DNA from: a virus
IMG/VR virus record: IMGVR_UViG_3300037088_000812
Location: 64,001-106,005 of that record
Reading direction: 5' to 3' (one strand)
DNA length: 42,005 nt
Shown here: in pieces, positions 1 through 32,019 of the stretch
Position numbering within the stretch: position 1 is the first letter of the stretch
How the letters are laid out: each line of letters opens with the position of its first letter
Translations under genes and position numbers: made by a program
The notes under the pieces: model-generated
What the model was told of the DNA's origin: nothing
Seen by the model: only the letters and a program-made list of their open reading frames with translations
The model's database searches: none

Positions 1-897
1 GGATTTCTAGGTAGTCATTTGTGTGAAGCTTTATTGTTTCAGGGAGAAGAAGTCCTTTGCCTAGATAATTTCTCCACAGGTCGAAAACGTAATATTGTTC
101 ACATGTTTGGGAATCAAAATTTTGAGGTCGTCAGACATGATGTGACTTTTCCTTACTATATTGAAATAGACAGAATATTTAATCTAGCATGTCCAGCTAG
201 TCCTGTTCAATATCAAATTGATCCTGTACAAACTACAAAGACATCTGTACACGGGGCAATAAATATGCTTGGGCTTGCAAAACGAACTAAAGCTCGAATT
301 CTACAAGCTTCCACAAGCGAAGTCTATGGAGATCCTGAAATTCATCCACAAACAGAAAAATATTGGGGTCGTGTAAATCCCATTGGAATTCGTTCTTGTT
401 ATGACGAAGGCAAGCGATGCGCCGAAACACTATTTTTTGACTACTGGAGACAAAACAAAGTTGAGATAAAGGTTGTTCGAATATTCAACACTTACGGGCC
501 AAGGATGTCGCCTAACGACGGTCGGGTAGTGAGTAATTTTATTATTCAAGCGTTAAAAAACGACGACATTACCATATATGGTGATGGATCCCAAACTAGG
601 TCATTCTGCTATGTGGACGACTTAATTAAAGTTATATTGTTAATGATGAACTCGCCGTCGAGCTTTATTGGACCAGTTAATATTGGCAACCCTAACGAAT
701 TTACAATGCTCGAATTAGCCCAATTGGTTATTAAATTAACTAGCTCTAATTCACGCATAGTATTTCAACCTTTACCTGAAGATGATCCGCACCAACGAAA
801 GCCGGATATTAAATTAGCTCGAGAGACACTAGGGTGGGAGCCAAAGATAGAATTAGAAGAGGGCTTATCCAAAACAATTAGATATTTCGAATCATGA
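1..897 (+). CDS. uxs: UDP-glucuronate decarboxylase / UDP-xylose synthase (SDR family), 5'-partial (continues left of window)
   Basis: In-frame from nt 1 (GFLGSHLCE = end of the Rossmann GxxGxxG region). Near-colinear matches to UXS1 blocks [17 protein letters not shown].VNPIGxR.CYDEGKR.AET, RIFNT(F/Y)[17 protein letters not shown] and G.GSQTR.F.YV.DL, and C-terminal QRKPDI..A...LGWEP...LEEGL. The catalytic YxxxK lies in the missing/early region. Confidence 0.85.
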
Positions 898-1157
898 AAA
901 CAAACAAGAAAAAGAAAATTATACAACGCGAAAGAGCAAGACTAAAAAGAGATAAACCAATAGTAGTCAAAAATTTGCTCAAAGATCACATTTGCAAAAA
1001 TTGTCACTGGTCTCATTCAGGTTCTTATTTCTTGGCTTGTTGTACTAATCCTGTGAGAGTTCAACGAAAAAAGAATTACCCGCCATATTTAAAAAGCGTT
1101 GATTTTCCAAAAGATCTATCGTGTCGGCATTGGCAAAAATGGGATAGATATGCATAA
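894..1157 (+). CDS. Small Cys4 (zinc-ribbon-like) protein, paralog family member 1 ([12 protein letters not shown]...CRHWQKW)
   Basis: ATGA start/stop overlap with uxs. Shares the LLKDxxCxNC ... CxxW motif with six other ORFs in the window. Confidence 0.5.
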
Positions 1158-1186
1158 TTTAGTTAAAATGAAAGTAGGAATTAAAA

Positions 1187-1807
1187 GTGAATATATTAGA
1201 CTTCAAGGCAGACGAACTTAAGGGCCCGTTGTTAGATAAAGTTTTCACTGTAGTCGAAAGGATGTTCCTTGACAAATACAAGAGTTATCAACCTACAGTA
1301 AAAGATCTTCCAATTCCTTTAGACATTGACACGTTCGAAGGGCAAGTTGCAATGAAAGACTATCTAGAAATTCGTGTCATAGAAGAGCTAATGGAAATGA
1401 AAGAGGCCATAGAAAATAAAGATTTAATAGAACACGTCTACGAAGAAATTAGTGATTCATTTGCTTTCCTTGTCAACGCCTTTATACTTTATGGATGGAA
1501 GGCAAATAAGTTCCTTCCAGTAGAGAGACTTTGGCAAGATCTTAATGGCCGGCCCAAAATAGATAACGACAAAGCTATATTACAAGTAGTCTATGACATT
1601 TGTCTGGCATGTAATAAACTAAAAATACGGCCTTGGAAGAAGTCGCAATATTTAACTGACCTTTTGATCTTTGAAGAACGATTAGAAAAAGTATACTACT
1701 CCTATATGGAGCTAGTTTTTAATATGAATATCCATCCTGAAATGTTATGGGATATTTTTCATAGAAAAGTTTTATGTAATGATTTTAGGATTGAAACGGG
1801 GTACTGA
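1187..1807 (+). CDS. MazG-like all-alpha NTP pyrophosphohydrolase (candidate dCTPase/dUTPase, T4 gp56-like role)
   Basis: GTG start. Motifs EELMEMKEAIENKD and EEISDSFAFLVNAFILYGW resemble the MazG/dimeric-dUTPase EExxEL...EELGDVLfyL signature. Confidence 0.5.
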   Translation: MNILDFKADELKGPLLDKVFTVVERMFLDKYKSYQPTVKDLPIPLDIDTFEGQVAMKDYLEIRVIEELMEMKEAIENKDLIEHVYEEISDSFAFLVNAFILYGWKANKFLPVERLWQDLNGRPKIDNDKAILQVVYDICLACNKLKIRPWKKSQYLTDLLIFEERLEKVYYSYMELVFNMNIHPEMLWDIFHRKVLCNDFRIETGY

Positions 1808-2067
1808 TGAATATGGCGAAGGAACCAGAGATTGAAATAGTAGAAAATAAAACACATGAAGTCAAATTGACATTCTATGAGGGAAACTCTTCGAATATAA
1901 GAAGACGTTTATTGTATAGATTTTGGCCTACAGACGAAGACGGAAATTGGTCAATGGTTATACTAGACAGCTCTCTAAATGATGAGGCTGGACCGGCTCT
2001 ATATCTTCCAAAAGAAGTCATTGATATTTTATTGAGGCAAAAGGTGAAAGGAGATCTAAAGAGATGA
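1807..2067 (+). CDS. hypothetical protein
   Basis: ORF coupled by ATGA overlap to the upstream gene; in the same-strand gene train. Confidence 0.45.
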   Translation: MNMAKEPEIEIVENKTHEVKLTFYEGNSSNIRRRLLYRFWPTDEDGNWSMVILDSSLNDEAGPALYLPKEVIDILLRQKVKGDLKR

Positions 2068-2468
2068 GGGCAATTTTTCAGATCATAGTTTTCGTAGTAT
2101 GTGCGGGCGCTTTATTTGGGGTCGGTTACTTTTGGGGATCTGGCGATACGGATAAGACACTATTGAAGCAGGTCACCGAAGTAGTTAATAGTAAGTCGCC
2201 TATTAAATTACCGATTCCAACTACAACTATAATTTCAACAGATGAAAACACTGTAGATCTAATCAAGACCTTAGAGTCTATGAAAGGATTAGATTCCTGG
2301 TCATTAACTCAGGATCATTATTTTTGGAGCTTTAGCGATAAGAAGTGGAATCCAAACCTTAGAAGTTTACGCATTGAGTTTAAGGGCGGCGAAAGCTACA
2401 CCTTTAACAATAAGACTCCAAACGAGCTAATGTCTCTAGTTGGAGTAATTAGATCTCAACATGAGTGA
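2064..2468 (+). CDS. hypothetical membrane-anchored protein (N-terminal TM helix IFQIIVFVVCAGALFGVGYFWG)
   Basis: ATGA overlap with previous ORF; single N-terminal hydrophobic helix. Confidence 0.5.
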   Translation: MRAIFQIIVFVVCAGALFGVGYFWGSGDTDKTLLKQVTEVVNSKSPIKLPIPTTTIISTDENTVDLIKTLESMKGLDSWSLTQDHYFWSFSDKKWNPNLRSLRIEFKGGESYTFNNKTPNELMSLVGVIRSQHE

Positions 2469-2570
2469 AATTCTCATTTCAGTTTTGGGGCATAATCACA
2501 CAAAATTAGATATCGGTTTATGAATCTAATTCTAAGTGTATATAATATAAGAAAATACAAATAATAGAAC

Positions 2571-2600
2571 TTGGCATATTTATTGCATCTCTATTAGTAT
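2571..2600 (+). promoter_or_regulatory. Candidate sigma70-type promoter for the Hsp20 gene (TTGGCA - 17/18 nt - TAGTAT)
   Basis: TTGGCA at 2571-2576 and a TAGTAT-like -10 at about 2595-2600, roughly 20 nt upstream of the AAGGAGG RBS. A TATATAAT box at 2539-2546 is an alternative -10. Confidence 0.3.
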
Positions 2601-2620
2601 CTAATCTCAAGGAGGAATAC

Positions 2621-3016
2621 ATGAGATACAATTTCGATCTTTTCGATCCAGACGTTTTCAACTACGCATTTGGAAAGTTTTTTGACAACGGTTTGTTCAA
2701 CCGTATATTTGACCTTGACGAAGATATACCTCTTCGAGGTCTTATGAAGCAAACTGATACCGGTTATGCTGTAAAAGTTGAAGTGCCTGGATTCGACAAA
2801 GAAAACATCAAGGTTACTTACAACAGGCCATATCTAATGGTGAACGCCGAACAGACAGATGGCGAAGTAGTCAGGAAGTATTCCTATAAGACTTTCCTAC
2901 CAAACATCGACGTCAACGCAATCGACTCAAGCCTGAAAAACGGTGTCCTTACTTTAGCTTTGCCCAAGAAAGCCGAAGATCAACCCAAGCCAATTGACAT
3001 TAAAGTGAACGAATAA
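2621..3016 (+). CDS. Hsp20/alpha-crystallin family small heat-shock protein
   Basis: AAGGAGG RBS at 2609-2615. Alpha-crystallin domain pattern DTGYAVKVEVPGFDKENIKV ... GVLTLALPK. Confidence 0.8.
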   Translation: MRYNFDLFDPDVFNYAFGKFFDNGLFNRIFDLDEDIPLRGLMKQTDTGYAVKVEVPGFDKENIKVTYNRPYLMVNAEQTDGEVVRKYSYKTFLPNIDVNAIDSSLKNGVLTLALPKKAEDQPKPIDIKVNE

Positions 3017-3026
3017 CAAACTTTTA

Positions 3027-3051
3027 GGGCCGCCGCAATGCGGCCCTTTTT
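3027..3051 (+). terminator. Rho-independent terminator (GGGCCGC-cgcaat-GCGGCCC + TTTTT)
   Basis: Perfect 7-bp GC stem, 6-nt loop, then T5, directly after the Hsp20 stop. Confidence 0.7.
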
Positions 3052-3070
3052 GTGTGAGCATAATTCTAAT

Positions 3071-3256
3071 ATGGACAAGATCATAACCAAGAACTTGTTG
3101 AAGGACCATACATGTCAAAATTGTGAACTCTTCTATTCAATTGGAAGTTGTCCAAATTCAAGTCTAATAAAAAGACAAAGAGATTTTGATTCAGTAATGT
3201 TTTCTTGCGAACAATGGCATGAAGATAGAGGTGATGGACTGAGTTGGTTATTTTAA
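3071..3256 (+). CDS. Small Cys4 protein, paralog family member 2 (KNLLKDHTCQNC...CEQWHE)
   Basis: Track ORF 3038-3256, but its first ATG lies inside the terminator stem. Start more likely ATG 3071 (MDKIITKNLLKDH). Confidence 0.5.
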   Translation: MDKIITKNLLKDHTCQNCELFYSIGSCPNSSLIKRQRDFDSVMFSCEQWHEDRGDGLSWLF

Positions 3257-3430
3257 GTGGACAAAGAAATAACGCTTAACATACTGAAAAACAAATTTTG
3301 TGAAAATTGCTACCACGCAGTTCCTAAACCACTACCATCGAAATGGTTTGTCTGTTCAGTAGACATGACATATATGGGCATTACAAAAACAACAGAAGAA
3401 GAAACTTGTCTAAGATGGAAAAAGAAATAA
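3257..3430 (+). CDS. Small Cys4 protein, paralog family member 3 (GTG start; LNILKNKFCENC...CLRWKKK)
   Basis: Not in the ATG-based track. Same frame as member 2 and begins immediately after its TAA stop. Translates to VDKEITLNILKNKFCENCYH...CLRWKKK*. Confidence 0.4.
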   Translation: MDKEITLNILKNKFCENCYHAVPKPLPSKWFVCSVDMTYMGITKTTEEETCLRWKKK

Positions 3431-3627
3431 TGTTCAATAGAAAAAAGTATTCACAAAAAGCTTTAATTATCAATCTTCTTAAAAACAAAAACTGTAATAC
3501 TTGTGTTAATAGACGCGGGTCTGCATATTGCATAATAGATCCAAAAATACAATCGTGTATCAAGTGGGAAAGTTTAAAACTTTTCCTAATAAAACATCCA
3601 GAATATAAAAACAAAATTATAGCTTAA
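3430..3627 (+). CDS. Small Cys4 protein, paralog family member 4 (INLLKNKNCNTC...CIKWES)
   Basis: TAATG stop/start overlap with member 3. The track ORF 3343-3627 is longer, but its N-terminal part overlaps member 3 in another frame. Confidence 0.45.
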   Translation: MFNRKKYSQKALIINLLKNKNCNTCVNRRGSAYCIIDPKIQSCIKWESLKLFLIKHPEYKNKIIA

Positions 3628-3641
3628 TAGAGGTAATAAAA

Positions 3642-4205
3642 ATGTTCGTAATAGAAGGTGTCCGCTGTAGTGGGAAAAGCTTTACAGTAGATGTAATAAA
3701 AAGGAATTTCCCAAACGTGTGCGTATATAAAGATGTAGGATTGCGACTAGCTTCAGAGCGTCAATTAGATTTAGACGATTATGCTATTGGTAGAGATTTA
3801 ACTTACGCTCAAGCCTTGCCAGCATTAATGGATGACCACCTAACCGATACTGCCGTCTTCGATAGAATGTATTTTTCTTCTTATGTTTACGGAATAGCTT
3901 GGCGAAAAGGTGATAAACTGTTCTGGAAAGAACACATTGAATTAATAGAGAATATGTATGGCGACTTTCTTAAAAAAATCCACTTCATACTTTTAGACTT
4001 ACCCACCGATGCAGAACTAGATCGAATAAAGAAGATGCGTCGTCAAAAGGACAAGTGGGATAAGACGCTAGATTTCAAACGTCAGTATAGATTATATCTC
4101 GAAATCGTAAACAAAATCACTAAAGCTAAAGTGTCTTTTTTACCATCTTTTCAAAGCGAAGACTTTATAGTGAAGTTCTTTAAGGAAGTCTTTAGCCCTA
4201 GATAA
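3642..4205 (+). CDS. Deoxynucleoside monophosphate kinase, T4 gp1-like
   Basis: P-loop GVRCSGKS matches gp1 GVKRSGKD (GxxxxGK[ST] with Arg-Ser). An FDRMY motif is also shared with gp1. RBS AGAGG lies upstream. Confidence 0.7.
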   Translation: MFVIEGVRCSGKSFTVDVIKRNFPNVCVYKDVGLRLASERQLDLDDYAIGRDLTYAQALPALMDDHLTDTAVFDRMYFSSYVYGIAWRKGDKLFWKEHIELIENMYGDFLKKIHFILLDLPTDAELDRIKKMRRQKDKWDKTLDFKRQYRLYLEIVNKITKAKVSFLPSFQSEDFIVKFFKEVFSPR

Positions 4206-4211
4206 GATAAT
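4204..4211 (+). promoter_or_regulatory. AAGATAAT box (GATAAGATAATCTC) 3 nt upstream of ATG 4215
   Basis: Member of the recurrent start-proximal motif; no SD in between. Confidence 0.45.
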
Positions 4212-4214
4212 CTC

Positions 4215-4568
4215 ATGGGTTTATTCGGATTCAAGCCTTATGGCTTTACAGCTCCATATAAGCAGCATGAAGGTAAGTTAGTAGTATCAGCTTATAATAG
4301 TAAAAACTTCAAAGACGCTCTTGGTGTAGACAAAGTATACTTAGTAAAATTTACAAATCAGAATAAAAATCAAGTTGCTTATTTGGGCGTCAAATTTACT
4401 GTAGAAGCCGCGAAACATGGTAATCCAGCAATATCTGAACAAGAAGTGAGAGATATGTGGTTTCCGAAATCTACGGCTACAGGCTCTAAATCTAAAAACT
4501 GGTACAAGCTTACAGTCTTAACTAGCGCTGATAAAAAAGAAATATTCAGAGCAATTTTCAACCAATAG
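4215..4568 (+). CDS. hypothetical protein
   Basis: ORF immediately after the AAGATAATCTC box. Spurious-looking minus shadow ORF 4379-4561. Confidence 0.5.
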   Translation: MGLFGFKPYGFTAPYKQHEGKLVVSAYNSKNFKDALGVDKVYLVKFTNQNKNQVAYLGVKFTVEAAKHGNPAISEQEVRDMWFPKSTATGSKSKNWYKLTVLTSADKKEIFRAIFNQ

Positions 4569-4603
4569 AATTTCTCATCTAAGCATTTATCCCCACTAAA
4601 CGA

Positions 4604-4611
4604 AAGATAAT
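4604..4611 (+). promoter_or_regulatory. AAGATAAT box (CGAAAGATAATCTC) about 33 nt upstream of ATG 4645, with TAAGGAG RBS between
   Basis: Same 14-mer context as at 31201-31218. Confidence 0.45.
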
Positions 4612-4644
4612 CTCATACTACTTGCGTAAGGAGAATGTTGTAAG

Positions 4645-5184
4645 ATGGAAACAAATGACTACATCAATATTTTAAATCATATGCAGATCGGTGAGGATAG
4701 ATCAGAAGGTGGCTATAAGGGCCTTGCTACTAGACTATCTAACGATCTTGGCAGAGATATATCACCAGGAGCCGTTAAAAGCTATTTAAAGAAAAAGGAA
4801 AAGACGGCTGCTGTCAGAGACATAAAGCATAGAGCAAAAAGGGCTCGAAGTGAAGGTGCTTATAAATATGGCTCCAGTGGAGCCGTCTATAAGATGCTTA
4901 TAGGCCACTTTGATGAAGGCATCGAGTATAATCTAGAAGACATCGAAAGAGCCGAACTAGAAGAAGCAGTTAAAGAAGTAAAAAGTAAACACCCTGGTCT
5001 TAAACACGTATCTGCTAAGACGAGGAGTGAAACTGTAAAGAAAGCCAAGAAAGGCGAAAAAATTGGTGAGGGTGGCTTTAAAGCAGTTGAAGCCAAAGCA
5101 GCTAAGAGGTACGGCAGCGAAAAGTCAGGCAAAAGAGTGGCTGCTGCAGCCATGTGGAAAATGAAAAAGCTTAGGGGAAAATAA
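4645..5184 (+). CDS. Lys-rich basic protein (possible nucleic-acid-binding/virion protein)
   Basis: TAAGGAG RBS. About 20% K/R with a K-rich C-terminus. Confidence 0.5.
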   Translation: METNDYINILNHMQIGEDRSEGGYKGLATRLSNDLGRDISPGAVKSYLKKKEKTAAVRDIKHRAKRARSEGAYKYGSSGAVYKMLIGHFDEGIEYNLEDIERAELEEAVKEVKSKHPGLKHVSAKTRSETVKKAKKGEKIGEGGFKAVEAKAAKRYGSEKSGKRVAAAAMWKMKKLRGK

Positions 5185-5269
5185 TCTCGGAATAAGCGAT
5201 AATATTCTAATATATAGTCGTACGCCGCTGTCATAAAAGCGGCATGACTCCATGGAGAGGTAGTAGGTT

Positions 5270-6061
5270 GTGAACAATAAAGAGAAAATAATTATAAGGC
5301 TTATGACGCTCTGGGCTATAATAATGGCAGGGGCCGTTAAGCTTTGGGATAGTATTGTTAAACTTTTTGAAAATAAAAAAACTACACCTGCAACTACCAC
5401 GACTCCCAAAGCAACATTAACTGGTACGGCAGTTACGACATCAGTTGCAATACCAACTCCAACTCCAACACCAATTCCGGCGCCGGCATCACCAGCCCCA
5501 GTATCTTCTACAACTGGTAATAAAGTAGCCAACGTTATAGAAAAAATACTCCAGCTGATTGAAAAACACTGGAAAACAGTTTTGATAATTTTTGGTATCA
5601 TCATCATATTAGGAGCTGTAAATGAAATTTTTAGTTGCAGTATTAATAATAATCTTAAGCACGACATCTCTAGTCTTCAGTCAACAAACGCAGCCCTTGC
5701 CGCAACCAACTCCAACCTCACAAACAGTAACGCCGGACTCTCAGCCGACAATGCAAAGCTTACTACAGACAATGCCAGCCTCAAGTCAAACAATAACGAT
5801 CTCAAGGCAAACATTGCAAAGCTGGATGAACAAATTAGACAAAGCGCTGAGCTTGTTAAAAGACTCCAAGGCGACTATAAGCAACTTGCAGAACAGCTTG
5901 CAAGAAGCGAAAGTGATAGAGCTGAACTTGAAAAACGAATTAACCAAAGCTCAGGATTCACTGACCAGCTCAGCAGCGACAATACAGACATTACAGGAAT
6001 TGTTAGCGACGTCAGGGACAGTATCGGCCGCGCTCTCAGCCAAGATCCAGGAACAAAGTAA
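5270..6061 (+). CDS. Membrane protein with two TM helices, a Pro/Thr linker and a C-terminal coiled coil
   Basis: GGAGAGG RBS before the GTG start. Overlaps the next gene's frame for 440 nt. Confidence 0.45.
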   Translation: MNNKEKIIIRLMTLWAIIMAGAVKLWDSIVKLFENKKTTPATTTTPKATLTGTAVTTSVAIPTPTPTPIPAPASPAPVSSTTGNKVANVIEKILQLIEKHWKTVLIIFGIIIILGAVNEIFSCSINNNLKHDISSLQSTNAALAATNSNLTNSNAGLSADNAKLTTDNASLKSNNNDLKANIAKLDEQIRQSAELVKRLQGDYKQLAEQLARSESDRAELEKRINQSSGFTDQLSSDNTDITGIVSDVRDSIGRALSQDPGTK

Positions 6062-6290
6062 TCTAATAGATAGTCAAGGAATTACTATAGCCGACCAAGG
6101 TAAGAAAATAACTGACCAAGGTAAAACCATAGCAGACCAGAAGGCTCTTATAGCCCAACAAGGTACTGATATAGCTAATGTAGCTAAAGACGTCAAATCC
6201 CTACAAAACGAAAACACTATTCTAACTATAGGCGTTATTACATTGGGCATTACTACTGTAGCCGGTGTAGTTTGGGCATTAGTAAAATGA
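5622..6290 (+). CDS. Secreted/membrane-anchored coiled-coil repeat protein (signal-peptide-like N-terminus, C-terminal TM anchor, ITIADQGK-type repeats)
   Basis: GGAG RBS 6 nt upstream. N-terminal MKFLVAVLIIILSTTSLVFS and C-terminal ILTIGVITLGITTVAGVVWALVK. Confidence 0.45.
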   Translation: MKFLVAVLIIILSTTSLVFSQQTQPLPQPTPTSQTVTPDSQPTMQSLLQTMPASSQTITISRQTLQSWMNKLDKALSLLKDSKATISNLQNSLQEAKVIELNLKNELTKAQDSLTSSAATIQTLQELLATSGTVSAALSAKIQEQSNLIDSQGITIADQGKKITDQGKTIADQKALIAQQGTDIANVAKDVKSLQNENTILTIGVITLGITTVAGVVWALVK

Positions 6291-6601
6291 CACTTAATGA
6301 AGCTTTCAATAGAAAGTTCGACATGCCACCACATATAGAGGCAATATTTAATAAGCTTCGTGATCCAAGTGAGAATGTCAAAGGTTCTGAAATGAAAGTG
6401 CTTCAACAGTGGCTGTTAGGTGCCCCTACTGAAACTAAAAAATATTTCAAAAAGACTTGGTCAGCCAAAAGAAAGAAAGACAAAGTTGGTGATGAAGATG
6501 CCGAACATGAACTACATCAGCAACTCCCTGAATATCCTAGCGCATGGTCTCATCACGATACTAAACCTAACAGATGGCAAACATTCGACACACCAGGGTA
6601 A
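6287..6601 (+). CDS. hypothetical protein
   Basis: ATGA overlap with the upstream gene. Track ORF starts at 6272, but ATG 6287 is the coupled start. Confidence 0.45.
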   Translation: MTLNEAFNRKFDMPPHIEAIFNKLRDPSENVKGSEMKVLQQWLLGAPTETKKYFKKTWSAKRKKDKVGDEDAEHELHQQLPEYPSAWSHHDTKPNRWQTFDTPG

Positions 6602-6604
6602 TTG

Positions 6605-6844
6605 ATGAAAGTTTATTTACATAAAGGTGATAGGTGGTATGAAGCTTTTTTACCCGTGTACGAAAAAAAGAGATTTATTATGGCCCTGCACTTTTCTCAA
6701 ACAGCACGGTTAGATGTTTGGGATGAAAGCTATATAACACGTTGGCCATTAGTTACTAATTTTAAACCCACACTTTTAGAAATGAGAAATTCATTCATTG
6801 AAATATTTACCAACTACATCAAATATAAGTCGTTAATTAAATAA
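6605..6844 (+). CDS. hypothetical protein
   Basis: ATG 4 nt after the preceding stop. Confidence 0.4.
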   Translation: MKVYLHKGDRWYEAFLPVYEKKRFIMALHFSQTARLDVWDESYITRWPLVTNFKPTLLEMRNSFIEIFTNYIKYKSLIK

Positions 6845-6846
6845 CT

Positions 6847-7152
6847 ATGAAAGCTTTTCGTCACGAAGTGCCTGATGACCAAATAGAAAAAGGTGAGTCT
6901 GCCATAAAAACAGTAATCCCTCTTGTCCGCGTTAAATCAGATAAACCAGGTTGGGTAACTTTGTGGATTGACAAGAAAAAACCCAATATCTTTTATTTTC
7001 AACCTGTATTAGATTTTTCTCATTGGGGTGATGAAATGAAAAAAACTTTTAATTATGAACCCTCTACTGAACAAAAACAATTCATAATAAGAGACTTATT
7101 CAAAGACAAATCACAGTTTCTGTTTCTTTACAACGACTTCTATAACATGTAA
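6847..7152 (+). CDS. hypothetical protein
   Basis: ORF in the gene train. Confidence 0.45.
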   Translation: MKAFRHEVPDDQIEKGESAIKTVIPLVRVKSDKPGWVTLWIDKKKPNIFYFQPVLDFSHWGDEMKKTFNYEPSTEQKQFIIRDLFKDKSQFLFLYNDFYNM

Positions 7153-7171
7153 TAACAGCATATTTTTATCT

Positions 7172-7627
7172 ATGAGAAAGCGAGAATGGCACTATTTGTT
7201 GCCGCCAGCTGCATTTGAGCTGCGCTGCAATATTTGTAGTGGCGGCCGCGTTTGGTGGTCTGAATACGAACATATGATTTTTTGCTTCGACTGTCAGCTA
7301 GATGTTGACGGCACTGAGTCACTATTTGATGGGCCCATTCTACTTAAAACCTCTTATCTTTTAGGTCTTAACTTTGACAGGTACAATTTAACGACAAATC
7401 AGATTGAAAGACTTAACTTAGAAAAAAGCGATGTAGATGGTATCAAAGAATTAATCTATGATGATCCAAAAGAAGTAGAAAGAAACAAAGTCCTTGCTAA
7501 AGAACGCACAATAGAATTGTTGAAGACTGGCGAAGAAATTCTAGATCCCTATGGCGAAGGACTTAATCGATACGGCAAGAAGTATTTTAAACTTGTGCCA
7601 GGGGAGAAAGAAGATGGACAAACATGA
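7172..7627 (+). CDS. hypothetical zinc-ribbon protein (CNICSGG...CFDCQ)
   Basis: CxxC...CxxC pair near the N-terminus. Confidence 0.45.
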   Translation: MRKREWHYLLPPAAFELRCNICSGGRVWWSEYEHMIFCFDCQLDVDGTESLFDGPILLKTSYLLGLNFDRYNLTTNQIERLNLEKSDVDGIKELIYDDPKEVERNKVLAKERTIELLKTGEEILDPYGEGLNRYGKKYFKLVPGEKEDGQT

Positions 7628-8048
7628 TGTTATATTTGAACTCAAAAGAAAGGCAGCAATTTCGTTGTACCCTGACTTTGACGGAACTGAAAGCGACTAT
7701 CAACCAATAGTCGATCTGTTCGGTGACGTCGTCCTTCAAGTACAAGACGAAGATTACCAGGGCGATACTTGGGTTCTTTATAAAAGAGGAGAAACACGCT
7801 ACGGCCGACTTGAGTTTGGATGGGGCTCATGTTCAGGATGCGATGCGCTCCAAGCCTGTGGCTCATTAGGTGAAATCGACCAGTTGATAAATGAACTGTA
7901 TAACAGCATAGAATGGTTTGATGACGCTTCCGTTGCATTAAAATATTTCAAAGAACATAATGCAGATGAAGATATCGGTGGCAACGACAAAGCATTTACT
8001 GAAAAGGCAATAGAGTTACTTGAGGCCGTAGTTGGAAAAAAAGCGTAG
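7614..8048 (+). CDS. hypothetical protein (GWGSCSGCDALQACG motif)
   Basis: GGGGAGAAAG RBS before ATG 7614. The track's 7551 start overlaps the upstream gene. Confidence 0.45.
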   Translation: MDKHDVIFELKRKAAISLYPDFDGTESDYQPIVDLFGDVVLQVQDEDYQGDTWVLYKRGETRYGRLEFGWGSCSGCDALQACGSLGEIDQLINELYNSIEWFDDASVALKYFKEHNADEDIGGNDKAFTEKAIELLEAVVGKKA

Positions 8049-8445
8049 AGTCATTGAATGGTTGCAAGCTGTGCCTGGGGGCGAGCGTGTAACTAAAGTC
8101 GACGAAAATCATATTGAGCTCAAAACTTGGTGGCCAGATAACAAATATCAATTTGACGAAGCTCCCCATCTCCGTGAAATGTCTATCAAGTGGGGCCCAA
8201 ACGGTGATAACGATCATTATCACACTCGCGACGGCGAATACAAAGAATGGTACGAAAGTGGAGAATTAAGAGTACACTCATATTACAAACAAGGTCGAAT
8301 ACACGGAGAATGTAAAATTTGGACTAAAGACGGAAAAATAGATAGTCATGTATTCTTCAACCGCGGAGAAGAATTAAATAGAATTTTCTTTAATGCTAAA
8401 CCCGGCTATATTTTAGTAGACGGTAAATATTACTCTGATGACTAA
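8032..8445 (+). CDS. MORN-repeat protein
   Basis: Repeated G.....W...G.L.....Y..G...G pattern (EYKEWYESGELRVHSYYKQGRIHGECKIWTKDGKI). Confidence 0.55.
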   Translation: MEKKRRVIEWLQAVPGGERVTKVDENHIELKTWWPDNKYQFDEAPHLREMSIKWGPNGDNDHYHTRDGEYKEWYESGELRVHSYYKQGRIHGECKIWTKDGKIDSHVFFNRGEELNRIFFNAKPGYILVDGKYYSDD

Positions 8446-8626
8446 AAAAGAAATTACTAAAAGACTACTCCAAGATAAAAGATGCAGAACCTGTAATTGG
8501 ATAGGCCCCGGGGCCAAAGAAGTGGCTGGAGTAGAAGCATGTTATGGGGCTAGATTTCTTGATATAGTTGCTTTGCCCAAAACCCTTACATGCGAAAAAT
8601 GGGAACGCCGTTTGGGCATAAATTAA
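8438..8626 (+). CDS. Small Cys4 protein, paralog family member 5 (KRLLQDKRCRTC...CEKWERR)
   Basis: ATGA overlap with previous gene; family motif. Confidence 0.5.
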   Translation: MTKKEITKRLLQDKRCRTCNWIGPGAKEVAGVEACYGARFLDIVALPKTLTCEKWERRLGIN

Positions 8627-8641
8627 AGTGAGAGGCATAGA

Positions 8642-8938
8642 ATGACTGATATAGAGCTATTGAAGATGGTCGTCGAGCGCATGCAAAAGCAGCGCGAGTA
8701 TGATGAGCTCTATATTGCCTTTTTAGCTAAGCTCATAGATGAAGAAGAATTTAATAAGCAGTGTCAAGAATTCGTGTGGACACCAAGATTAAACTTTAAC
8801 AGAGTAGAACTTAAAGACCAGGTTCGTAGATTAATACAGCTTACAGGGACCAGATATACTACTTCAGATTTAGCTGATATTTTTCAAGTCGGTTTTGAAG
8901 ATTTGGATGATATACGTGAAGAAATTTCTAAAGAGTAA
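8642..8938 (+). CDS. hypothetical acidic protein
   Basis: GAGAGG RBS before ATG. Confidence 0.45.
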   Translation: MTDIELLKMVVERMQKQREYDELYIAFLAKLIDEEEFNKQCQEFVWTPRLNFNRVELKDQVRRLIQLTGTRYTTSDLADIFQVGFEDLDDIREEISKE

Positions 8939-9575
8939 TTGGTCTTTGATCTTATGTATTATTTACTGGGCAATATTTGCCTCCTCATTTGTATTTCCTT
9001 CGTTTAAGAAAACACCGATCTACTCAATAAGTCTAACATCGATTATAGTAGTCCAACTAGGGGGTGTAGGCAAAACAGTTTACAAAAGATGGCGAAAGAA
9101 GCATCCTACAAAAAAGACCATAGCTCTTAACCTCTTATCAGATAAACCAAAGCCAGATAGTGTGTGGCGCAGCTTTGACGATAGAATTACAAAAATCTAT
9201 GATACTCTTGGTCAAGTAAGTTGCGTCTCAATTAAATTAAATAATCGAAGATGTAAAATGTACATGTATCATAATGGTTTTCTTCGTTCTATTAGAATAG
9301 AACATAGAGGATTTGAAGAATGGTTTTCTTGGTTAAATGATATTAAATGCCACTTCTTTGAAAAGAAAAATACGAAATGTGCTCAATGGAAATCATGGTT
9401 TGCTAACGGCGAAATACAACAAAACGGCTGGATGAATAAAGAGGGTGATTGTATAACTTACCCACATATGACAGACGACAAGTTTGTTAACTCTCTAATA
9501 TTTAAAGACGGCTATGCATTAGGTCCTGATATGAAATATTACCCAGATGAAGATGAAGGATATGACGCAATTTAA
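8895..9575 (+). CDS. Membrane protein with C-terminal MORN-like repeats
   Basis: Two N-terminal hydrophobic helices; C-terminus WFANGEIQQNGWMNKEGDCITY... Confidence 0.5.
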   Translation: MKIWMIYVKKFLKSNWSLILCIIYWAIFASSFVFPSFKKTPIYSISLTSIIVVQLGGVGKTVYKRWRKKHPTKKTIALNLLSDKPKPDSVWRSFDDRITKIYDTLGQVSCVSIKLNNRRCKMYMYHNGFLRSIRIEHRGFEEWFSWLNDIKCHFFEKKNTKCAQWKSWFANGEIQQNGWMNKEGDCITYPHMTDDKFVNSLIFKDGYALGPDMKYYPDEDEGYDAI

Positions 9576-9876
9576 TTTGACTGATTTTGAAACAATAAAA
9601 AATAAGTGGGTATACGACGTTAGGAATTATCGTAAGTTGCTCATAAAGCCGCTAGAGACGTTTTTTCATATCGATGGTGGAAACTGCTTATCGGTATTAA
9701 TTATTACAGGTTGGTGGCCTGGTGCAGGTGTTGATATGGAAGAAGCTCAGATAGAAAAAACTTGGATGACAGAAGAAAGGCTAAAATATCTCCAGATAGA
9801 TACAGATGTAGATCCAGACTTAGTGGCAAATTGTAAAAATCTTGAAACACGATGGTTACTGAGGGGCAACAACTAA
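9547..9876 (+). CDS. hypothetical protein
   Basis: ORF overlapping the upstream gene by 29 nt. Confidence 0.4.
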   Translation: MKMKDMTQFNLTDFETIKNKWVYDVRNYRKLLIKPLETFFHIDGGNCLSVLIITGWWPGAGVDMEEAQIEKTWMTEERLKYLQIDTDVDPDLVANCKNLETRWLLRGNN

Positions 9877-9909
9877 TAAAAGCATAATTTAATTTATAGG
9901 AGAAAGTAA

Positions 9910-10641
9910 GTGAGAATATTTGCAAATCATCTTGAAGCTATTAAAGAATTATTACGTGAGTTGAAAGAACTATCTATTACTACGCCATTAAACCACTATC
10001 AAGATAAATGGGTAAAAGGTGATAAAAATTTCTATACTAAAGAATTAATCGGTTATACATATAAGGTAAGTGATGCTTCTGCTAAGCTCGATGAAATGGT
10101 AGAATTCCTTTACAAAGATGAAGCTAAACCAATCATTGAGTATTGCGAGCTTGAATTGCATGACCGCTTATCTGGCGAATCTAAAAATCCAGGCGATGCC
10201 CACAAATCAAGATATAGTCTTTGGGAAGAGTTCCTTGAGGATAAGCAGAAATTCAGCTATACCTATAGTGAAAGGATAAATGACCCCAAACTCGAAAAAA
10301 ATCAAATACAAACAATCATTGACGAACTAAAAACGTCACCTGATTCTCGACAAGCAATAGTACAAATCTATAACTACCTTTATGATTCAAAGAACATTGG
10401 CGGCAAACATAGAATACCGTGCTCAATGCATTATCAGTTCTTAATACGAAATAAGAAACTTCATGGTATTTATGTAATGCGATCTAACGACTTACTTACT
10501 CATTATGTAGTGGATATTTGGCTCGCTAGCAAGATCCAGATGCACATAGCTGAACAATTAGGAATAGGCGTAGGATCTTTCACCTATTTTTCTGGCAGTT
10601 TACATGCATATGCGAAAGACTTCCCGAAGTTTGTATTTTAA
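9910..10641 (+). CDS. Deoxycytidylate (dCMP) hydroxymethylase, T4 gp42-like (thymidylate synthase superfamily)
   Basis: SPDSRQAIVQIYN matches gp42 NPDSRRGIMIYTR. CSMHYQFLIRNKKLHGIYVMRSNDLLTHYVVD matches gp42 CTNTVQYLIRDKKINAVVNMRSNDVVFGFRND. GSLHAY matches GSLHVY. Catalytic Cys is present, and Asp replaces the TS Asn that specifies uracil. RBS TAGGAGAAAG; GTG start. Confidence 0.8.
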   Translation: MRIFANHLEAIKELLRELKELSITTPLNHYQDKWVKGDKNFYTKELIGYTYKVSDASAKLDEMVEFLYKDEAKPIIEYCELELHDRLSGESKNPGDAHKSRYSLWEEFLEDKQKFSYTYSERINDPKLEKNQIQTIIDELKTSPDSRQAIVQIYNYLYDSKNIGGKHRIPCSMHYQFLIRNKKLHGIYVMRSNDLLTHYVVDIWLASKIQMHIAEQLGIGVGSFTYFSGSLHAYAKDFPKFVF

Positions 10642-10650
10642 GGATTTATC

Positions 10651-10833
10651 ATGAATCATTGCGATAGTTGTAAACATTTTGAAAGAGATGGGGCATTTGA
10701 TGTTCCTTGCCCGCCAGATCTTAATTTACCTGGCCCGTGCCATTCTTTCGCACCTCATTGCACATATGATCCTAAGTGGATAAAAGTCAGTAGACCTGAA
10801 GAACACTATTGTGCTCACTGGCAAGAAGTATGA
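10651..10833 (+). CDS. small Cys/His-rich protein
   Basis: 7 Cys and 6 His in 60 aa. Confidence 0.4.
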   Translation: MNHCDSCKHFERDGAFDVPCPPDLNLPGPCHSFAPHCTYDPKWIKVSRPEEHYCAHWQEV

Positions 10834-10836
10834 ATT

Positions 10837-11064
10837 TTGGATAATGTAATATTCCTCGAATCAATACCTGATTTTCTACCTATCGAAAAAGCAACTGATT
10901 CTAATTATATCAAACACGTCATTTGTGAAGATGCACGTTTTCACGTGCTTTGGTGGGATACAAATGGCGAACACTGTTCTGAAGCAAAATGTATTATCAA
11001 CAAAGGTAAAAAAGTTAATGACAAAAAAAGAATGGATAAACTTCGGAGGCGAAGCAGAGTCTAA
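10837..11064 (+). CDS. hypothetical protein
   Basis: ORF; overlaps the next gene in another frame. Confidence 0.35.
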   Translation: MDNVIFLESIPDFLPIEKATDSNYIKHVICEDARFHVLWWDTNGEHCSEAKCIINKGKKVNDKKRMDKLRRRSRV

Positions 11065-11494
11065 AGTTTTAGAATGGTTAAGAGACACACGTTTAGTCGT
11101 CTTTACTACAACCTACCTATTTGGTGACCCAGATACACTCGAAAAAAATGAAGACGCTATTTATGCTCGTCAATGTAACAAGATATTAGGTGATATAGTT
11201 ATAGTTGGATACGGTAGCGTAGATGTTAAAAGAGGTATCTATAGCATTGCCTGTTCATCTATTATTGGCTTCAAAGGTAAAGACTATATTCTTACTAACA
11301 CCAACATGGAAAGAGATAAGACTTGGGTCATTCCAGGTCATGCAGCCAAGAACTACGTTAAAAACATTAAACCAATAAAATTAGCAGCAGGAGGAATGGG
11401 TTATAGACTAAAACCATGGAACATGTATACAGCTAAACTATTTGACGTTTGGCTAAAGGAGTTGATACATGGAAGCAAAACTCTATCAAGTTAA
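11018..11494 (+). CDS. hypothetical protein
   Basis: Track ORF 10925-11494. ATG 11018 (MTKKEWINFGG) has an AAGGT RBS and the least overlap. Confidence 0.4.
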   Translation: MTKKEWINFGGEAESKVLEWLRDTRLVVFTTTYLFGDPDTLEKNEDAIYARQCNKILGDIVIVGYGSVDVKRGIYSIACSSIIGFKGKDYILTNTNMERDKTWVIPGHAAKNYVKNIKPIKLAAGGMGYRLKPWNMYTAKLFDVWLKELIHGSKTLSS

Positions 11495-11759
11495 TTTTCA
11501 TCAGGGCGAAGACGTTAAGACATTATGGGAAGTTTACATTTTACAAATTGGTATTGCAATAAATGAACAGGGTGAATGTAGAAGATGCAAATTTGAAAGG
11601 GTCCGAGCTCTCAATCAAAATTTAATTGATGTAGATGTCTCATATGATTTCACAGTAACAGTCGATAAATTTATGAGAATTAAAGAAGATTTAATGCAAG
11701 CCACAGATGAGGAGTTCAAAGACCTCATAGAAGAATATGGAAGCGAAGGATCTAACTAA
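11469..11759 (+). CDS. hypothetical protein
   Basis: ORF in the gene train. Confidence 0.4.
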   Translation: MEAKLYQVNFHQGEDVKTLWEVYILQIGIAINEQGECRRCKFERVRALNQNLIDVDVSYDFTVTVDKFMRIKEDLMQATDEEFKDLIEEYGSEGSN

Positions 11760-11973
11760 GCACTTACTTAAAGATGACTCTTGTCGTAACTGCCGAATTG
11801 CCTTTAGTATGGTTGGCCGTTTGGGCAAAGATATTCCAAAATTAATAGCTTGGAATAGATGTAAATGTAAGTTCGACGAGAGTAACATTAACACAAAAGA
11901 AGTGCACTTACAACCGCCCAAAGATTGGATTTGTGATAGTTATAAAAGACACGAGACGTGGGATGGAAGCTAA
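11737..11973 (+). CDS. Small Cys4 protein, paralog family member 6 (KHLLKDDSCRNC...WICDSYK)
   Basis: Family motif. Confidence 0.5.
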   Translation: MEAKDLTKHLLKDDSCRNCRIAFSMVGRLGKDIPKLIAWNRCKCKFDESNINTKEVHLQPPKDWICDSYKRHETWDGS

Positions 11974-12220
11974 AGAAAGAACAATACATTTACTAAAAGA
12001 CGAAAGCTGCGAAACTTGCTTCGTCATTCATCAATTAAATTTCATGCTACGGAAAGATATTGAATTAGCGCTAAGCCAACTCAAATGCAAATGTATAATC
12101 GATCATTTAAACTCAAATGGTAACGATCTTACTTTAAAAGCGCCTGAAGCTATGATCTGTGAAAATTACAGCAAAGATAGAGGCATTATAGTAAACTATA
12201 AAATTTTTAACCTACCCTGA
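11963..12220 (+). CDS. Small Cys4 protein, paralog family member 7 (IHLLKDESCETC...MICENYSK)
   Basis: Start MEAKERT overlaps the previous paralog's stop. The two adjacent members share MEAKxxTxHLLKD N-termini. Confidence 0.5.
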   Translation: MEAKERTIHLLKDESCETCFVIHQLNFMLRKDIELALSQLKCKCIIDHLNSNGNDLTLKAPEAMICENYSKDRGIIVNYKIFNLP

Positions 12221-12276
12221 TTTTTCTCATCTAAACCCCATATATAATATACTATATAAAAAGTTATGGGGGAAGA

Positions 12277-13209
12277 ATGTATTATCAAAATGACGACATC
12301 AATCGTATATACTTCAATGCAATCAGCGACCTATATCAATTAGGTAATCTAACTGGTAAAAGAAAAGAATTACCATTTTTAAATTTCACGCTCACAAACT
12401 CTGATAAAAATATTCTCTTAGCACCTATGTTTGCCCAACGTAATTGGCCGTGGATTTTAAGAGAATGCTCTGATAGGCTATTTAGTATAAAGAATCCAGG
12501 CATAGCTTTTCGTTATAGCAAGAACTGGGAAAACCGCCAAGAAGATTCGGGTTTATATTCCTACCACTATTCAGACCGGTTAAATGGTCAAATGAAAGAA
12601 CTATTGTCTAAGAATAAACATGGCCGAGATAAAATTGTGATGGTTTGGAACAAGGGAGACACAGGGATAGACGGTCGTCAACCTTGCACAATTTTCTTAC
12701 AACCATTTATGGAACACGATAACAAGATGAGTATGTTAGTTACTATGAGAAACAATGATATGATTAACATTTTTCCAAGCGACATATTCATTCATAGTTC
12801 TTATCTGAAATTTTGGTGCATAAAAAACAACATTGAATACAAGAACATCTACTGGGTATCAGCAATTGCATATTACCAAAAGAAACGAGATAAGATCAAG
12901 TTTGTAGACCGACTTATAAATCAATGGAATGGTAACTATGATAATATTCAAACTACTCACTGGGATAAAGATATAATAAACGACCTTGAGATCAAAGAAA
13001 CCATAGAAGCAAATGTCCGAGATGGAGGTAAGATTGAATTGATTAACGGTCTTAAGACACCATATGTCCGAGAATGGACTAACATCATGTTAATGGCTGA
13101 AGCTAAAATGCGAGACGACAAAGAGACATTTTCTCAGTTAAAGAACTTAACATGGACTACAGAGTTTGCTTTTATTCGTGATAGTTTACTCACCCAGAAG
13201 TTTCGATAG
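12277..13209 (+). CDS. Second thymidylate-synthase/dCMP-hydroxymethylase family paralog (pyrimidine C5-modifying enzyme, specificity unknown)
   Basis: DKIVMVWNKGD matches the TS RRIIVSAWNPAD block. QPCTIFLQPF carries the catalytic Cys. MRNNDMINIFPSDIF matches gp42 MRSNDVVFGFRNDY, again with Asp at the TS-Asn position. About 100-aa N-terminal extension. GGGGGAAG RBS. Confidence 0.65.
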   Translation: MYYQNDDINRIYFNAISDLYQLGNLTGKRKELPFLNFTLTNSDKNILLAPMFAQRNWPWILRECSDRLFSIKNPGIAFRYSKNWENRQEDSGLYSYHYSDRLNGQMKELLSKNKHGRDKIVMVWNKGDTGIDGRQPCTIFLQPFMEHDNKMSMLVTMRNNDMINIFPSDIFIHSSYLKFWCIKNNIEYKNIYWVSAIAYYQKKRDKIKFVDRLINQWNGNYDNIQTTHWDKDIINDLEIKETIEANVRDGGKIELINGLKTPYVREWTNIMLMAEAKMRDDKETFSQLKNLTWTTEFAFIRDSLLTQKFR

Positions 13210-13921: not shown

Positions 13922-14056
13922 CTACCTCACATAGCGCATATTTCATACTATAAAGTATTGATTCATGCGCGACAAAGAATTAACAAAAAAACTTCTTAAG
14001 GGATCACTCTGTACTATTGCATACGAAAGCGTCTTTCGTGGTTCAATGATAAGGGT

Positions 14057-14332
14057 GTGCTTGAACGTTTCTGCGGTGACTTCGAACAAGAACCTGCATA
14101 CGAAGTACAATGCACTTGCGGAAGCTTTCTAAGCGCTGACATAGCTGATGGCTCAGTCAAGCAACTTTTAGATGTTGTCAGAAAAAGTTATCCAGTTTCA
14201 ATTGCTAGAACTAAAACCTTTGAAGAGTTAGGTAAAATTTTTGGAGACGCTGTAGCTGAAGACATAATCAAAGCTGGTGAAATTGAAAAAAGTTGGGTTG
14301 AGCAAAAAAGAAAAAACGAAGAGACTTCTTAA
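14057..14332 (+). CDS. hypothetical protein
   Basis: ORF in the gene train. Confidence 0.4.
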   Translation: MLERFCGDFEQEPAYEVQCTCGSFLSADIADGSVKQLLDVVRKSYPVSIARTKTFEELGKIFGDAVAEDIIKAGEIEKSWVEQKRKNEETS

Positions 14333-14412
14333 GATCGTCGTTAATAGGTAAATCAGAGTATGAATGGTTGATTTGTAGATATTCTAAAATCATAAAAAAT
14401 TTGGAGAAGTAG

Positions 14413-16323: not shown

Positions 16324-16412
16324 CATATTTAAAACAAATAAAACGTCTGTCAGACGATTAAAAACAAAAGTGTTTCGACTCACTTTAAAAACGTTTAAGG
16401 AGAAAAGTAAAT

Positions 16413-31982: not shown

Positions 31983-32019
31983 ATTGTGTGTTGTGTGTTA
32001 TTATCTATGACCGCCGTTA

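Follow-up and report, generated by a model that had tools for sequence, protein, structure and literature searches.

It was found that the first 13,209 nucleotides of a viral DNA of 42,005 nucleotides (IMG/VR record IMGVR_UViG_3300037088_000812, positions 64,001 to 106,005; this whole stretch is called the window) very probably encode a pre-replicative module for the modification of cytosine at C5. A nucleotide kinase, a dCTPase and a cytosine-type homolog of thymidylate synthase (TS), named TS1, form a trio that recurs in unrelated phages; therefore, such a module is well supported. As a whole, the locus is probably explained as a module that replaces deoxycytidine (dC) by the logic of phage T4, accompanied by a UDP-glucuronate decarboxylase / UDP-xylose synthase (UXS) as a possible source of a sugar donor. 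A sequence-only reading of the window had predicted DNA with 5-hydroxymethylcytosine (hmC), possibly pentosylated. The open reading frames (ORFs) that it named were all present at their coordinates on the + strand, and its observation was confirmed; its interpretation was borne out for the cytosine module but not for the transferase that it named or for its analogy with arabinosyl-hmC. The coordinates of the genes are collected in Table 1.

TS1 belongs to the TS family by Pfam (Thymidylat_synt, PF00303, 5.8e-20) and is 28% identical to T4 gp42 in BLASTP (6e-12). In this alignment, CSMHYQFLIRNKK/MRSNDLL/..D of TS1 pairs with CTNTVQYLIRDKK/MRSNDVV/..D of gp42. Residues are numbered here as in Escherichia coli ThyA, based on alignments with E. 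coli ThyA, T4 gp42 and RB69 gp48. TS1 has Cys146, Ser147, Arg166, Ser167, Asp169 and Asp177, with Arg at position 143. The catalytic Cys146 and the change of Asn177 to Asp were present in multiple alignments; thus, the gp42-like gene of the sequence-only reading, with its catalytic Cys, its Asn-to-Asp switch and its aligned block, was upheld. RB69 gp48 showed Asn169 in the same alignment, as expected, and the placement of E58 varied between runs. As in gp42, the C-terminus of TS1 lies about 30 residues past His207, and the C-terminal segment of TS is missing. In TS, hydride transfer relies on this segment to close the active site. Among proteins of solved structure, MilA, a CMP hydroxymethylase, is closest to TS1 in sequence (6.7e-13), followed by ordinary TS (2e-9), the dCMP hydroxylase of HY126 (5e-9) and T4 gp42 (1.6e-6). 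TS1 has 91 detectable relatives, which fall into two clades.

Asp177 is found in TS1, in a second paralog named TS2 and in every relative aligned. It is known that Asp instead of Asn at this position makes dCMP the substrate (Lee et al., NAR 2026, PMC13326640). In the MetaGPA study of viromes (eLife 2021, PMC8670742), positions 177 and 147 best separate the TS homologs of cytosine-modified contigs from those of unmodified contigs, and the modified set is marked by Asp177 and a residue other than His at 147. Both TS1 and TS2 fit this modified pattern. From these residues, it is very likely that the substrate of both proteins is cytosine.

Which group is placed on C5 was assessed from positions 169 and 143. 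Asn at 169 marks the flavin-dependent synthases of 5-hydroxy-dCMP (5hodCMP), and every tested 5hodCMP synthase has Asn169 (PMC13326640). If TS1 and TS2 were synthases of this type, as in RB69, DLP3 and HY126, a sugar would be ether-linked to 5-hydroxycytosine. The cluster resembles that of RB69 in having a TS homolog, a thymidylate-kinase-like kinase, a dCTPase and a sugar-nucleotide gene, and searches with TS1 and with TS2 both reach the dCMP hydroxylase of HY126 (9iqu) at about 1e-9. In contrast to the tested synthases, TS1, TS2 and all of the aligned relatives keep Asp169, and the D169N change is absent. Because Asp169 is retained, the 5-hydroxycytosine route is disfavoured and a folate-type product is favoured: 5-hydroxycytosine is an unlikely product of these proteins, and the RB69-type account of the cluster, which is very improbable, was rejected on this ground. 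Since Asp169 is retained, hydroxymethyl-dC is the best guess for the product, Arg143 notwithstanding, and the residues taken together make the hydroxymethyl group the probable product of the module.

The predicted dCTPase had been described as a MazG-like NTPase that could fill the role of T4 gp56, and the results go beyond that claim. The protein matches a PHROG family of nucleotide pyrophosphohydrolases (9e-12). In a jackhmmer search it first gathered orthologs from nine further phage loci, and T4 gp56 itself followed at 2.8e-14. The kinship is visible only by iterative search: direct BLASTP against gp56 was not significant, and phmmer against the Protein Data Bank (PDB) gave no match. By itself, the protein scores 16.8 bits against the Pfam family dUTPase_2 (PF08761), under the cut-off of 22.9, while T4 gp56 (25.4 bits) and three orthologs of the window protein (25.5-50 bits) pass it. 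By these searches, the protein is a genuine homolog of gp56, the dCTPase of T4.

The kinase had been likened to T4 gp1, and its motifs indeed recur there: the P-loop GVRCSGKS and the FDRMY motif have the counterparts GVKRSGKD and FDRMYW in gp1. The assignment to the gp1 family did not stand. BLASTP against gp1 aligned only the P-loop (0.004) and the FDRMY segment (0.20), profile comparisons with hmmsearch and hhalign aligned only a P-loop of 27 residues (residues 1-27; hhalign 54%), and a search of the PDB, including the gp1 structures 1DEK and 1DEL, returned nothing at E<=1. No full-length homology to gp1 was found, and the profile similarity is confined to the P-loop. Rather, the protein is thymidylate-kinase-like (Pfam Thymidylate_kin, 29.3 bits against a cut-off of 27 bits) and is homologous over its full length to RB69 gp45 (5.6e-20, jackhmmer). 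RB69 gp45 is the "nucleotide kinase" that lies beside the TS homolog in the hypermodification clusters of RB69, DLP3 and RL38J1 (PMC13326640). DLP3 gp78 is of the same class as RB69 gp45. The jackhmmer family also includes kinases adjoining TS genes in 12 other loci.

TS2 was absent from the sequence-only reading. It is assigned to the TS family by Pfam (6.5e-6) and has Cys146, Thr147, Arg166, Asn167, Asp169 and Asp177, again with Arg at 143. The TS2 family keeps E58, Y94, C146, R166, D169 and D177, and the sequence A-Y-Y-Q-K-K-R replaces the H207-x-Y209 motif, so that His207 is Ala in the window protein. In Foldseek, the AlphaFold2 model of TS2 (pLDDT 88.7) had MilA as its best match (TM score 0.77-0.79 over 330 columns, the C-terminal helical domain included), and ordinary TS matched the core only. 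In TS, His207 and Tyr209 contact the 3′-OH of the deoxyribose. Because these residues are replaced, TS2 conceivably accepts another sugar or phosphate group or acts as a partner of TS1. It could yield a second product, take a substrate with ribose or with a different phosphorylation, or form a pair with TS1.

The second paralog is not peculiar to the window; it accompanies a TS1-type gene in many lineages of viruses. A full-library search found about 27 family representatives of TS2 below 1e-10. In the phage group of the window there are about 50 orthologous clusters, several of which share contigs with TS1 orthologs; in the related phage L013, TS2 lies at 11602-12540. Among 12 more distant IMG/VR loci with a TS2 relative (L016-L027), nine have a second TS-family gene within 10 kb of it, and all of these second genes that were aligned have Asp177, Asp169 and Arg143. 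In one such locus (L025, 12055-14001), an intein that includes a LAGLIDADG endonuclease domain splits the TS1-type gene.

Is the trio of kinase, dCTPase and TS1 common in other phages? It recurs in L013, L014, L015, L021 and Clostridium phage P21. A close relative of the window phage, L214 (TS1 match 80%), has the dCTPase, kinase, TS1 and TS2 genes together with an N6/N4 methylase gene, and a cytidylyltransferase-like gene (10735-11256) directly follows TS1; the ORF at 10925-11494 in the same slot of the window is not homologous to it. L013 (TS1 match 74%) has the same four genes, with a GT-A glycosyltransferase and a methyltransferase further on (16012-17210, near the DHH gene); UXS is missing from the interval that separates its CCA enzyme from its dCTPase. 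L014 (TS1 match 61%) has the trio accompanied by dCMP deaminase, dUTPase and ThyX, without UXS; its gene content is a full T4-like nucleotide set, and the ORF of 339 amino acids after its TS1 is not a TS2 homolog. The trio is also present in L015, a PolB phage of about 62 kb with a TS1-type gene, an N6/N4 methylase and an asparagine-synthase-like gene next to the kinase. Downstream of the TS1-type gene of L015, at a distance of about 3 kb, ARAGORN predicts a tmRNA and a tRNA-Met (13985-14346). In the cultured Clostridium perfringens phage P21 and its relatives (L032), an ORF of 249 amino acids separates the dCTPase and TS genes of the trio. Because the trio is conserved across the contexts of L214, L013, L014, L015 and L032, it is regarded as a functional unit. 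The genes that vary among the close relatives, namely UXS, the cytidylyltransferase-like gene and the GT-A glycosyltransferase with its methyltransferase, would be of a modification-tailoring kind.

The UXS gene at the left edge of the window matches Pfam Epimerase/GDP_Man_Dehyd and aligns with human UXS1 over residues 3-306 (7.6e-124). The catalytic TSE, YxxxK and R and the NAD motif GGAGFLG all match in this alignment, which agrees with the identity first given to the gene. Its N-terminal part, about nine codons, lies beyond the window edge, and it had been asked whether the gene is truncated or lacks the catalytic Tyr and Lys there; in the parent contig the gene is complete (307 amino acids, L001 8788-9711) and YxxxK is aligned. 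A scan of a genome collection found bacterial UXS of many phyla that are 70-79% identical, and it is uninformative on the host since the matches span so many phyla. By sequence, the gene is predicted to encode a canonical, intact UXS acquired from bacteria. It runs head to tail with the gene string of the dCTPase, with start/stop overlaps at 894-897, 1805-1807 and 2064-2067, and the first strong terminator-like site downstream of it is the hairpin that follows the HSP20 gene. A promoter scan around UXS gave nothing above shuffled expectation. Among the TS loci compared, L214 aside, UXS was seen only in L001-L006, which are the loci of the window's own species-level group.

Some apparent phage UXS genes were set aside. 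Among the "Bacteriophage sp." fecal fragments, whose UXS is 62-68% identical, MT835983 has bacterial-type genes (a two-component system and a PAPS reductase), and the remaining fragments were dropped on their gene layout alone. "Aphanizomenon phage Yong-DA" was rejected as a UXS phage, as it carries a bacterial polysaccharide cluster.

The proposed pathway is as follows. The gp56-like pyrophosphohydrolase would destroy dCTP and dCDP and supply dCMP. Cys146 of TS1 would attack C6 of dCMP, the cytosine being read through Asp177, and TS1 would move the methylene group of methylenetetrahydrofolate to C5 and free 5-hydroxymethyl-dCMP, not 5-methyl-dCMP. The kinase would then form the diphosphate and a host NDP kinase the triphosphate, which the phage polymerase would incorporate. 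TS2 would be a MilA-like second paralog that modifies C5 of cytidylates and is conserved alongside TS1. UXS would turn UDP-glucuronate into UDP-xylose, the donor for a post-replicative xylosylation of the hydroxymethyl group. The UDP-glucuronate would presumably be host-derived, because no UDP-glucose dehydrogenase was seen in the 62 kb examined (the window, 10 kb upstream and about 9 kb downstream), which is also the range of the search for transferases.

The observations that weigh against this pathway concern the TS product, the sugar and the transferase. As for the product, Arg occupies position 143 in TS1, TS2 and every aligned relative, whereas T4 has Asp and RB69 has Glu. Asp or Glu at 143 goes with a hydroxymethyl product, as in T4 gp42 and MilA, and a bulky hydrophobic residue there is thought to exclude water (Lee et al., PMC13326640). 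Because the Arg143 state falls outside these published rules, the product is not readable from them. TS1 and/or TS2 might be a dCMP methyltransferase that makes 5-methyl-dC, as in Xanthomonas phage XP12, or might give another one-carbon product. Asp177 alone turns TS into a dCMP methylase according to the cited literature, the residue at 143 is not the acidic one that correlates with the hydroxymethyl product, and two paralogs leave space for two products. However, residue 143 is charged, not bulky and hydrophobic, so access of water at this position is not excluded; TS1 ends early in the manner of gp42; and for both paralogs the closest proteins of solved structure are hydroxymethylases of cytidylates. 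A methylase is thus unlikely. Since the C-terminal lid of TS is missing and residue 143 is charged, TS1 is expected to release the hydroxymethyl rather than the methyl product. Hydroxymethyl-dC in the DNA is still a predicted product, with Arg143 and the second TS paralog as complications. In addition, one or two genes for C5-cytosine DNA methylases adjoin the TS1-type gene in the distant TS2-bearing phages L016-L027 (for example L021, 15469-16497). Such neighbours are hard to reconcile with a complete replacement of cytosine in those phages. The window phage itself is uncultured.

As for the sugar, UXS is missing in L013 and L014, which are related phages, and in 12 other TS loci. Seventeen IMG/VR loci around a UXS gene all lack a TS gene within 10 kb of it. 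Neither a UDP-glucose dehydrogenase nor a DNA-type glycosyltransferase was found beside the module or in the 62 kb; further glycosyltransferases, TET and the TET-associated glycosyltransferase (TAGT) were likewise not seen among the larger window ORFs or in the two flanks. UXS may be an auxiliary metabolic gene unrelated to DNA, with the cytosine module acting independently. It could then reshape the nucleotide-sugar pools of the host, for instance through a drain on UDP-glucuronate or because UDP-xylose inhibits UDP-glucose dehydrogenase by feedback, or provide xylose for glycans of the virion or the host surface. The high identity to ordinary bacterial enzymes, the retention of the whole cytosine module in related phages that lack UXS, the 17 loci without a TS gene nearby and the want of an adjoining DNA-type glycosyltransferase in the window all favour such a role, as do some neighbours of UXS in other viral contigs that are of lipopolysaccharide type (HtrL_YibB, Glyco_transf_17 and extra epimerases of the short-chain dehydrogenase/reductase type). 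On the other hand, UXS sits within a string of nucleotide-metabolism and replication genes and is translationally packed with the dCTPase operon, and elsewhere it adjoins TAGT, UDP-glucose dehydrogenase, TS homologs, RecA/DnaB, primase and ribonucleotide reductase (RNR), not structural or lysis genes. The auxiliary role is a serious possibility that falls only a little short of an even chance.

Evidence for a role of UXS in DNA glycosylation comes from other phages. In other viral contigs, UXS mostly has genes for replication or nucleotide metabolism as neighbours (RNR, PolIII-alpha, PolB, DnaB, UvsX and primase), and in one megaphage UXS lies among replication genes. In a temperate-phage lineage (L121-L123), TAGT (PF20691, 4.2e-45), an ORF of 203 amino acids, UXS, a primase-helicase and a UDP-glucose dehydrogenase lie within about 7.5 kb (8286-15772 in L123, a small temperate-phage-like contig); the ORFs scanned in this lineage included no recognisable TET or TS gene. 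Within 9 kb of its replication region (L114, PV055685, 2691-11540), the cultured Pseudomonas phage QdP_Psa3 combines a helicase and a UDP-glucose dehydrogenase with a TS homolog and with a UXS homolog in which the UXS motifs are present. This TS homolog has Asn177 and is of the uracil (dUMP) type, which makes QdP_Psa3 a candidate for sugar-modified hydroxymethyluracil. There are precedents for phage enzymes of NDP-sugar synthesis that serve DNA modification in RB69/DLP3 and RL38J1 (PMC13326640), and further ones for base decoration in the UDP-glucose dehydrogenase of SP-15 and in Thanatos. No report of xylose on phage DNA was found in the literature searched.

Because other phages place UXS beside TAGT or a dUMP-type TS, together with UDP-glucose dehydrogenase, a DNA-sugar role is plausible, and I tentatively propose, at rather less than even chances, that UXS of the window feeds a DNA sugar. 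UXS is in any case a lineage-specific accessory gene. Of the pentosyl-hmC that had been predicted, a genuine UXS in the gene string of the dCTPase was thus retained, and the pentosylation itself is plausible, short of established, given the relatives without UXS. The analogy with arabinosyl-hmC is outdated: the arabinose of RB69 is carried on 5-hydroxycytosine and is derived from arabinose-5-phosphate, without UXS. More speculatively, and doubtful at present, some phages might use their own UXS to put xylose or a pentose derived from UDP-xylose on hydroxymethylpyrimidines of DNA, with TS1 and TS2 perhaps forming a two-enzyme system or a heterodimer. Three contexts fit DNA xylose: the window with hydroxymethylcytosine, QdP_Psa3 with hydroxymethyluracil, and L121-L123 with the TET-associated glycosyltransferase.

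As for the transferase, the sequence-only reading had named a GT-B glycosyltransferase of the window as the candidate that decorates hmC. The protein has no Pfam, PHROG or NCBIfam match. Its AlphaFold2 model (pLDDT 91) has a GT-B/GT4-like fold and matches SenB, BshA and MshA in Foldseek (1e-13 to 1e-9); T4 beta-glucosyltransferase (beta-GT) is not among its top 50 structural matches. Thus, the fold is right for the proposed role, but the genomic contexts are not. Of 80 IMG/VR loci around this family (L132-L211), only seven include a TS-like ORF at 10 kb or less and TS2 is seen in none, and a weak kinase match and a weak pyrophosphohydrolase match occur in one locus each. In contrast, tRNA genes lie within 10 kb in 42 and within 2 kb in 28 of these loci, often less than 100 bp away or with the glycosyltransferase inside tRNA arrays; the comparison figure is 0/33 among the TS- and UXS-anchored loci. 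Because it shows no association with TS but one with tRNA genes, the glycosyltransferase, the only one of the window, is a weak candidate for a DNA transferase.

Would it nevertheless transfer the sugar of UDP-xylose to hmC? Its structural neighbours BshA (3mbo) and MshA (3c4q) are also those reported for the DNA arabinosyltransferases of RB69 and DLP3, the family is phage-specific, it adjoins DNA polymerase and primase in phiRSL1 (L028, ORF258), and it occurs on the contig of P0005 and P0094, a close relative in which TS1 is found too. Against this stand the distance of 22 kb from the cytosine module, a family size of more than 5,400 clusters (91 for TS1), the TS-poor and tRNA-rich contexts, the near-neutral isoelectric point (7.2, compared with 9.05 for T4 beta-GT) and the absence of T4 beta-GT from the top structures. 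Such a function is quite improbable. From its gene contexts, the acceptor may rather be tRNA, or the gene may merely reside in tRNA islands. The window has no tRNA gene, although the phage encodes a CCA-adding enzyme upstream. Directly upstream of the glycosyltransferase gene, a low-complexity stretch (31986-32526) contains repeat ORFs that are rich in Pro/Gly on one strand and in His/Arg on the other.

How does the proposed dC replacement compare with known systems? The pathway logic is that of T4, with a pyrophosphohydrolase of the gp56 family and a TS1 that has the equivalents of Cys148 and Asp179 of gp42, Asp169 and a short C-terminus. However, TS1 shares only 28% identity with gp42 and has Arg instead of Asp at 143, the kinase resembles thymidylate kinases and not gp1, TS is present as two paralogs, the replisome is of the PolIII-alpha type while that of T4 is PolB, and UXS is present where no T4-type glucosyltransferase was seen in the 62 kb of the phage. 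The clusters of RB69, DLP3 and HY126 also combine a TS homolog with a kinase homologous to that of the window, a dCTPase, GT-B transferases and phage genes for sugar-nucleotide synthesis (PMC13326640). They differ in their TS homologs, which have the D169N change and use flavin and O2 to form 5-hydroxy-dCMP, while those of the window have Asp169, and in their donor, which is UDP-arabinofuranose from ribulose-5-phosphate, not a product of UXS. MilA of the mildiomycin pathway (PDB 5b6d/5jnh), the top sequence relative of TS1 among solved proteins and the top structural match of TS2, shares Asp177. In contrast, MilA has Asp143 and keeps His207 and Tyr209, whereas TS2 has Arg143 and a replaced His207, and MilA is a bacterial antibiotic-pathway enzyme that acts on CMP.

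In the MetaGPA viromes, TS homologs co-occur with pyrophosphohydrolases of the MazG/PRA-PH type and with deaminases (PMC8670742), and in a survey of phage DNA glycosyltransferase clusters the transferases are paired with sugar epimerases or nucleotidyltransferases (bioRxiv 2023.12.21.572611). Xylose and UXS do not feature in these two studies, and unlike the surveyed clusters, the window has its sugar enzyme near a TS module with no associated glycosyltransferase found. Bacillus phage SP-15 uses its UDP-glucose dehydrogenase for a glucuronate-bearing base, but this base is a uracil derivative. In Shewanella phage Thanatos, cytosine carries a pentose, and one phage protein is active as a UDP-xylose pyrophosphorylase; however, a pyrophosphorylase reaction instead of a decarboxylation supplies this UDP-sugar, and the TS homolog of Thanatos belongs to the 5-hydroxy class with D169N.

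Base hypermodification is among the main routes by which phages escape restriction enzymes and CRISPR, and new base chemistries have given enzymes for epigenetic sequencing and DNA labelling. The locus would extend the T4-type cytosine pathway to a large environmental phage of the PolIII type, and it reveals an uncharacterised Arg143 clade of cytosine-type TS homologs with a conserved MilA-like second paralog. The window, QdP_Psa3 and the phages with TAGT, UXS and UDP-glucose dehydrogenase together suggest UDP-xylose as a donor for DNA glycosylation, an idea that is directly testable since QdP_Psa3 is cultured. The GT-B family near tRNA arrays in thousands of phages is a separate, unexplained lead.

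By an exact-protein match, the window is part of a parent contig of 178,186 bp (ENA ERZ28656093, scaffold_57), near-identical copies of which are present in other samples. No DNA-level match, to a cultured phage or to any other, was found for positions 1-13209 by megablast against 50,697 phage records. The 10 kb upstream of the window contain a split PolIII-alpha/PHP polymerase, a NUDIX protein and the CCA-adding enzyme. Within the window there are many small ORFs, and nearly all of the ORFs lie on the + strand. The window phage is a large uncultured phage with a polymerase of the PolIII-alpha type, a gp32-like single-stranded DNA-binding protein and a FEN nuclease, and positions 1-13209 are the nucleotide-metabolism part of its early/replication region.

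Table 1. Features of the 42,005-nucleotide window, in window coordinates
Feature	Position	Strand	Basis or remark
UDP-glucuronate decarboxylase / UDP-xylose synthase (UXS)	1..897	+	Pfam, UXS1 match, parent contig
gp56-like dCTPase/dUTPase (predicted), all-alpha NTP pyrophosphohydrolase, Pfam dUTPase_2 family	1187..1807	+	PHROG, jackhmmer, Pfam orthologs
Terminator-like GC hairpin with T-run, after HSP20 gene	3026..3047	+	L001 11840-11861; consensus match only
Thymidylate-kinase-like nucleotide kinase, predicted to phosphorylate modified dCMP	3642..4205	+	Pfam, jackhmmer
TS1, cytosine-type TS homolog, predicted dCMP C5-hydroxymethylase	9910..10641	+	Pfam, BLASTP, alignments
TS2, second cytosine-type TS paralog, MilA-like C-terminal helical domain	12277..13209	+	Pfam, AlphaFold2, Foldseek
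DHH-like protein	14413-15366		Window ORF
gp32-like single-stranded DNA-binding protein	16413-17279		Window ORF
FEN/5′-3′ exonuclease	21555-22487		Window ORF
HNH endonuclease	27653-28237		Window ORF
GT-B (GT4-like) glycosyltransferase, probably outside the module	32952..34022	+	AlphaFold2, Foldseek
Small Cys-rich paralogs	894-1157, 3038-3256, 3257-3430, 3343-3627, 8438-8626, 11737-11973, 11933-12220		Interleaved with nucleotide-metabolism genes

A motif scan revealed seven small paralogous ORFs of 57-95 amino acids, which have an N-terminal K.LLKD..C..C motif and then C..W downstream. A weak homolog of these Cys-rich proteins is present in the related phage L013, a phage without UXS. The start codon of the first of them, on the + strand, overlaps with the stop codon of UXS (ATGA).

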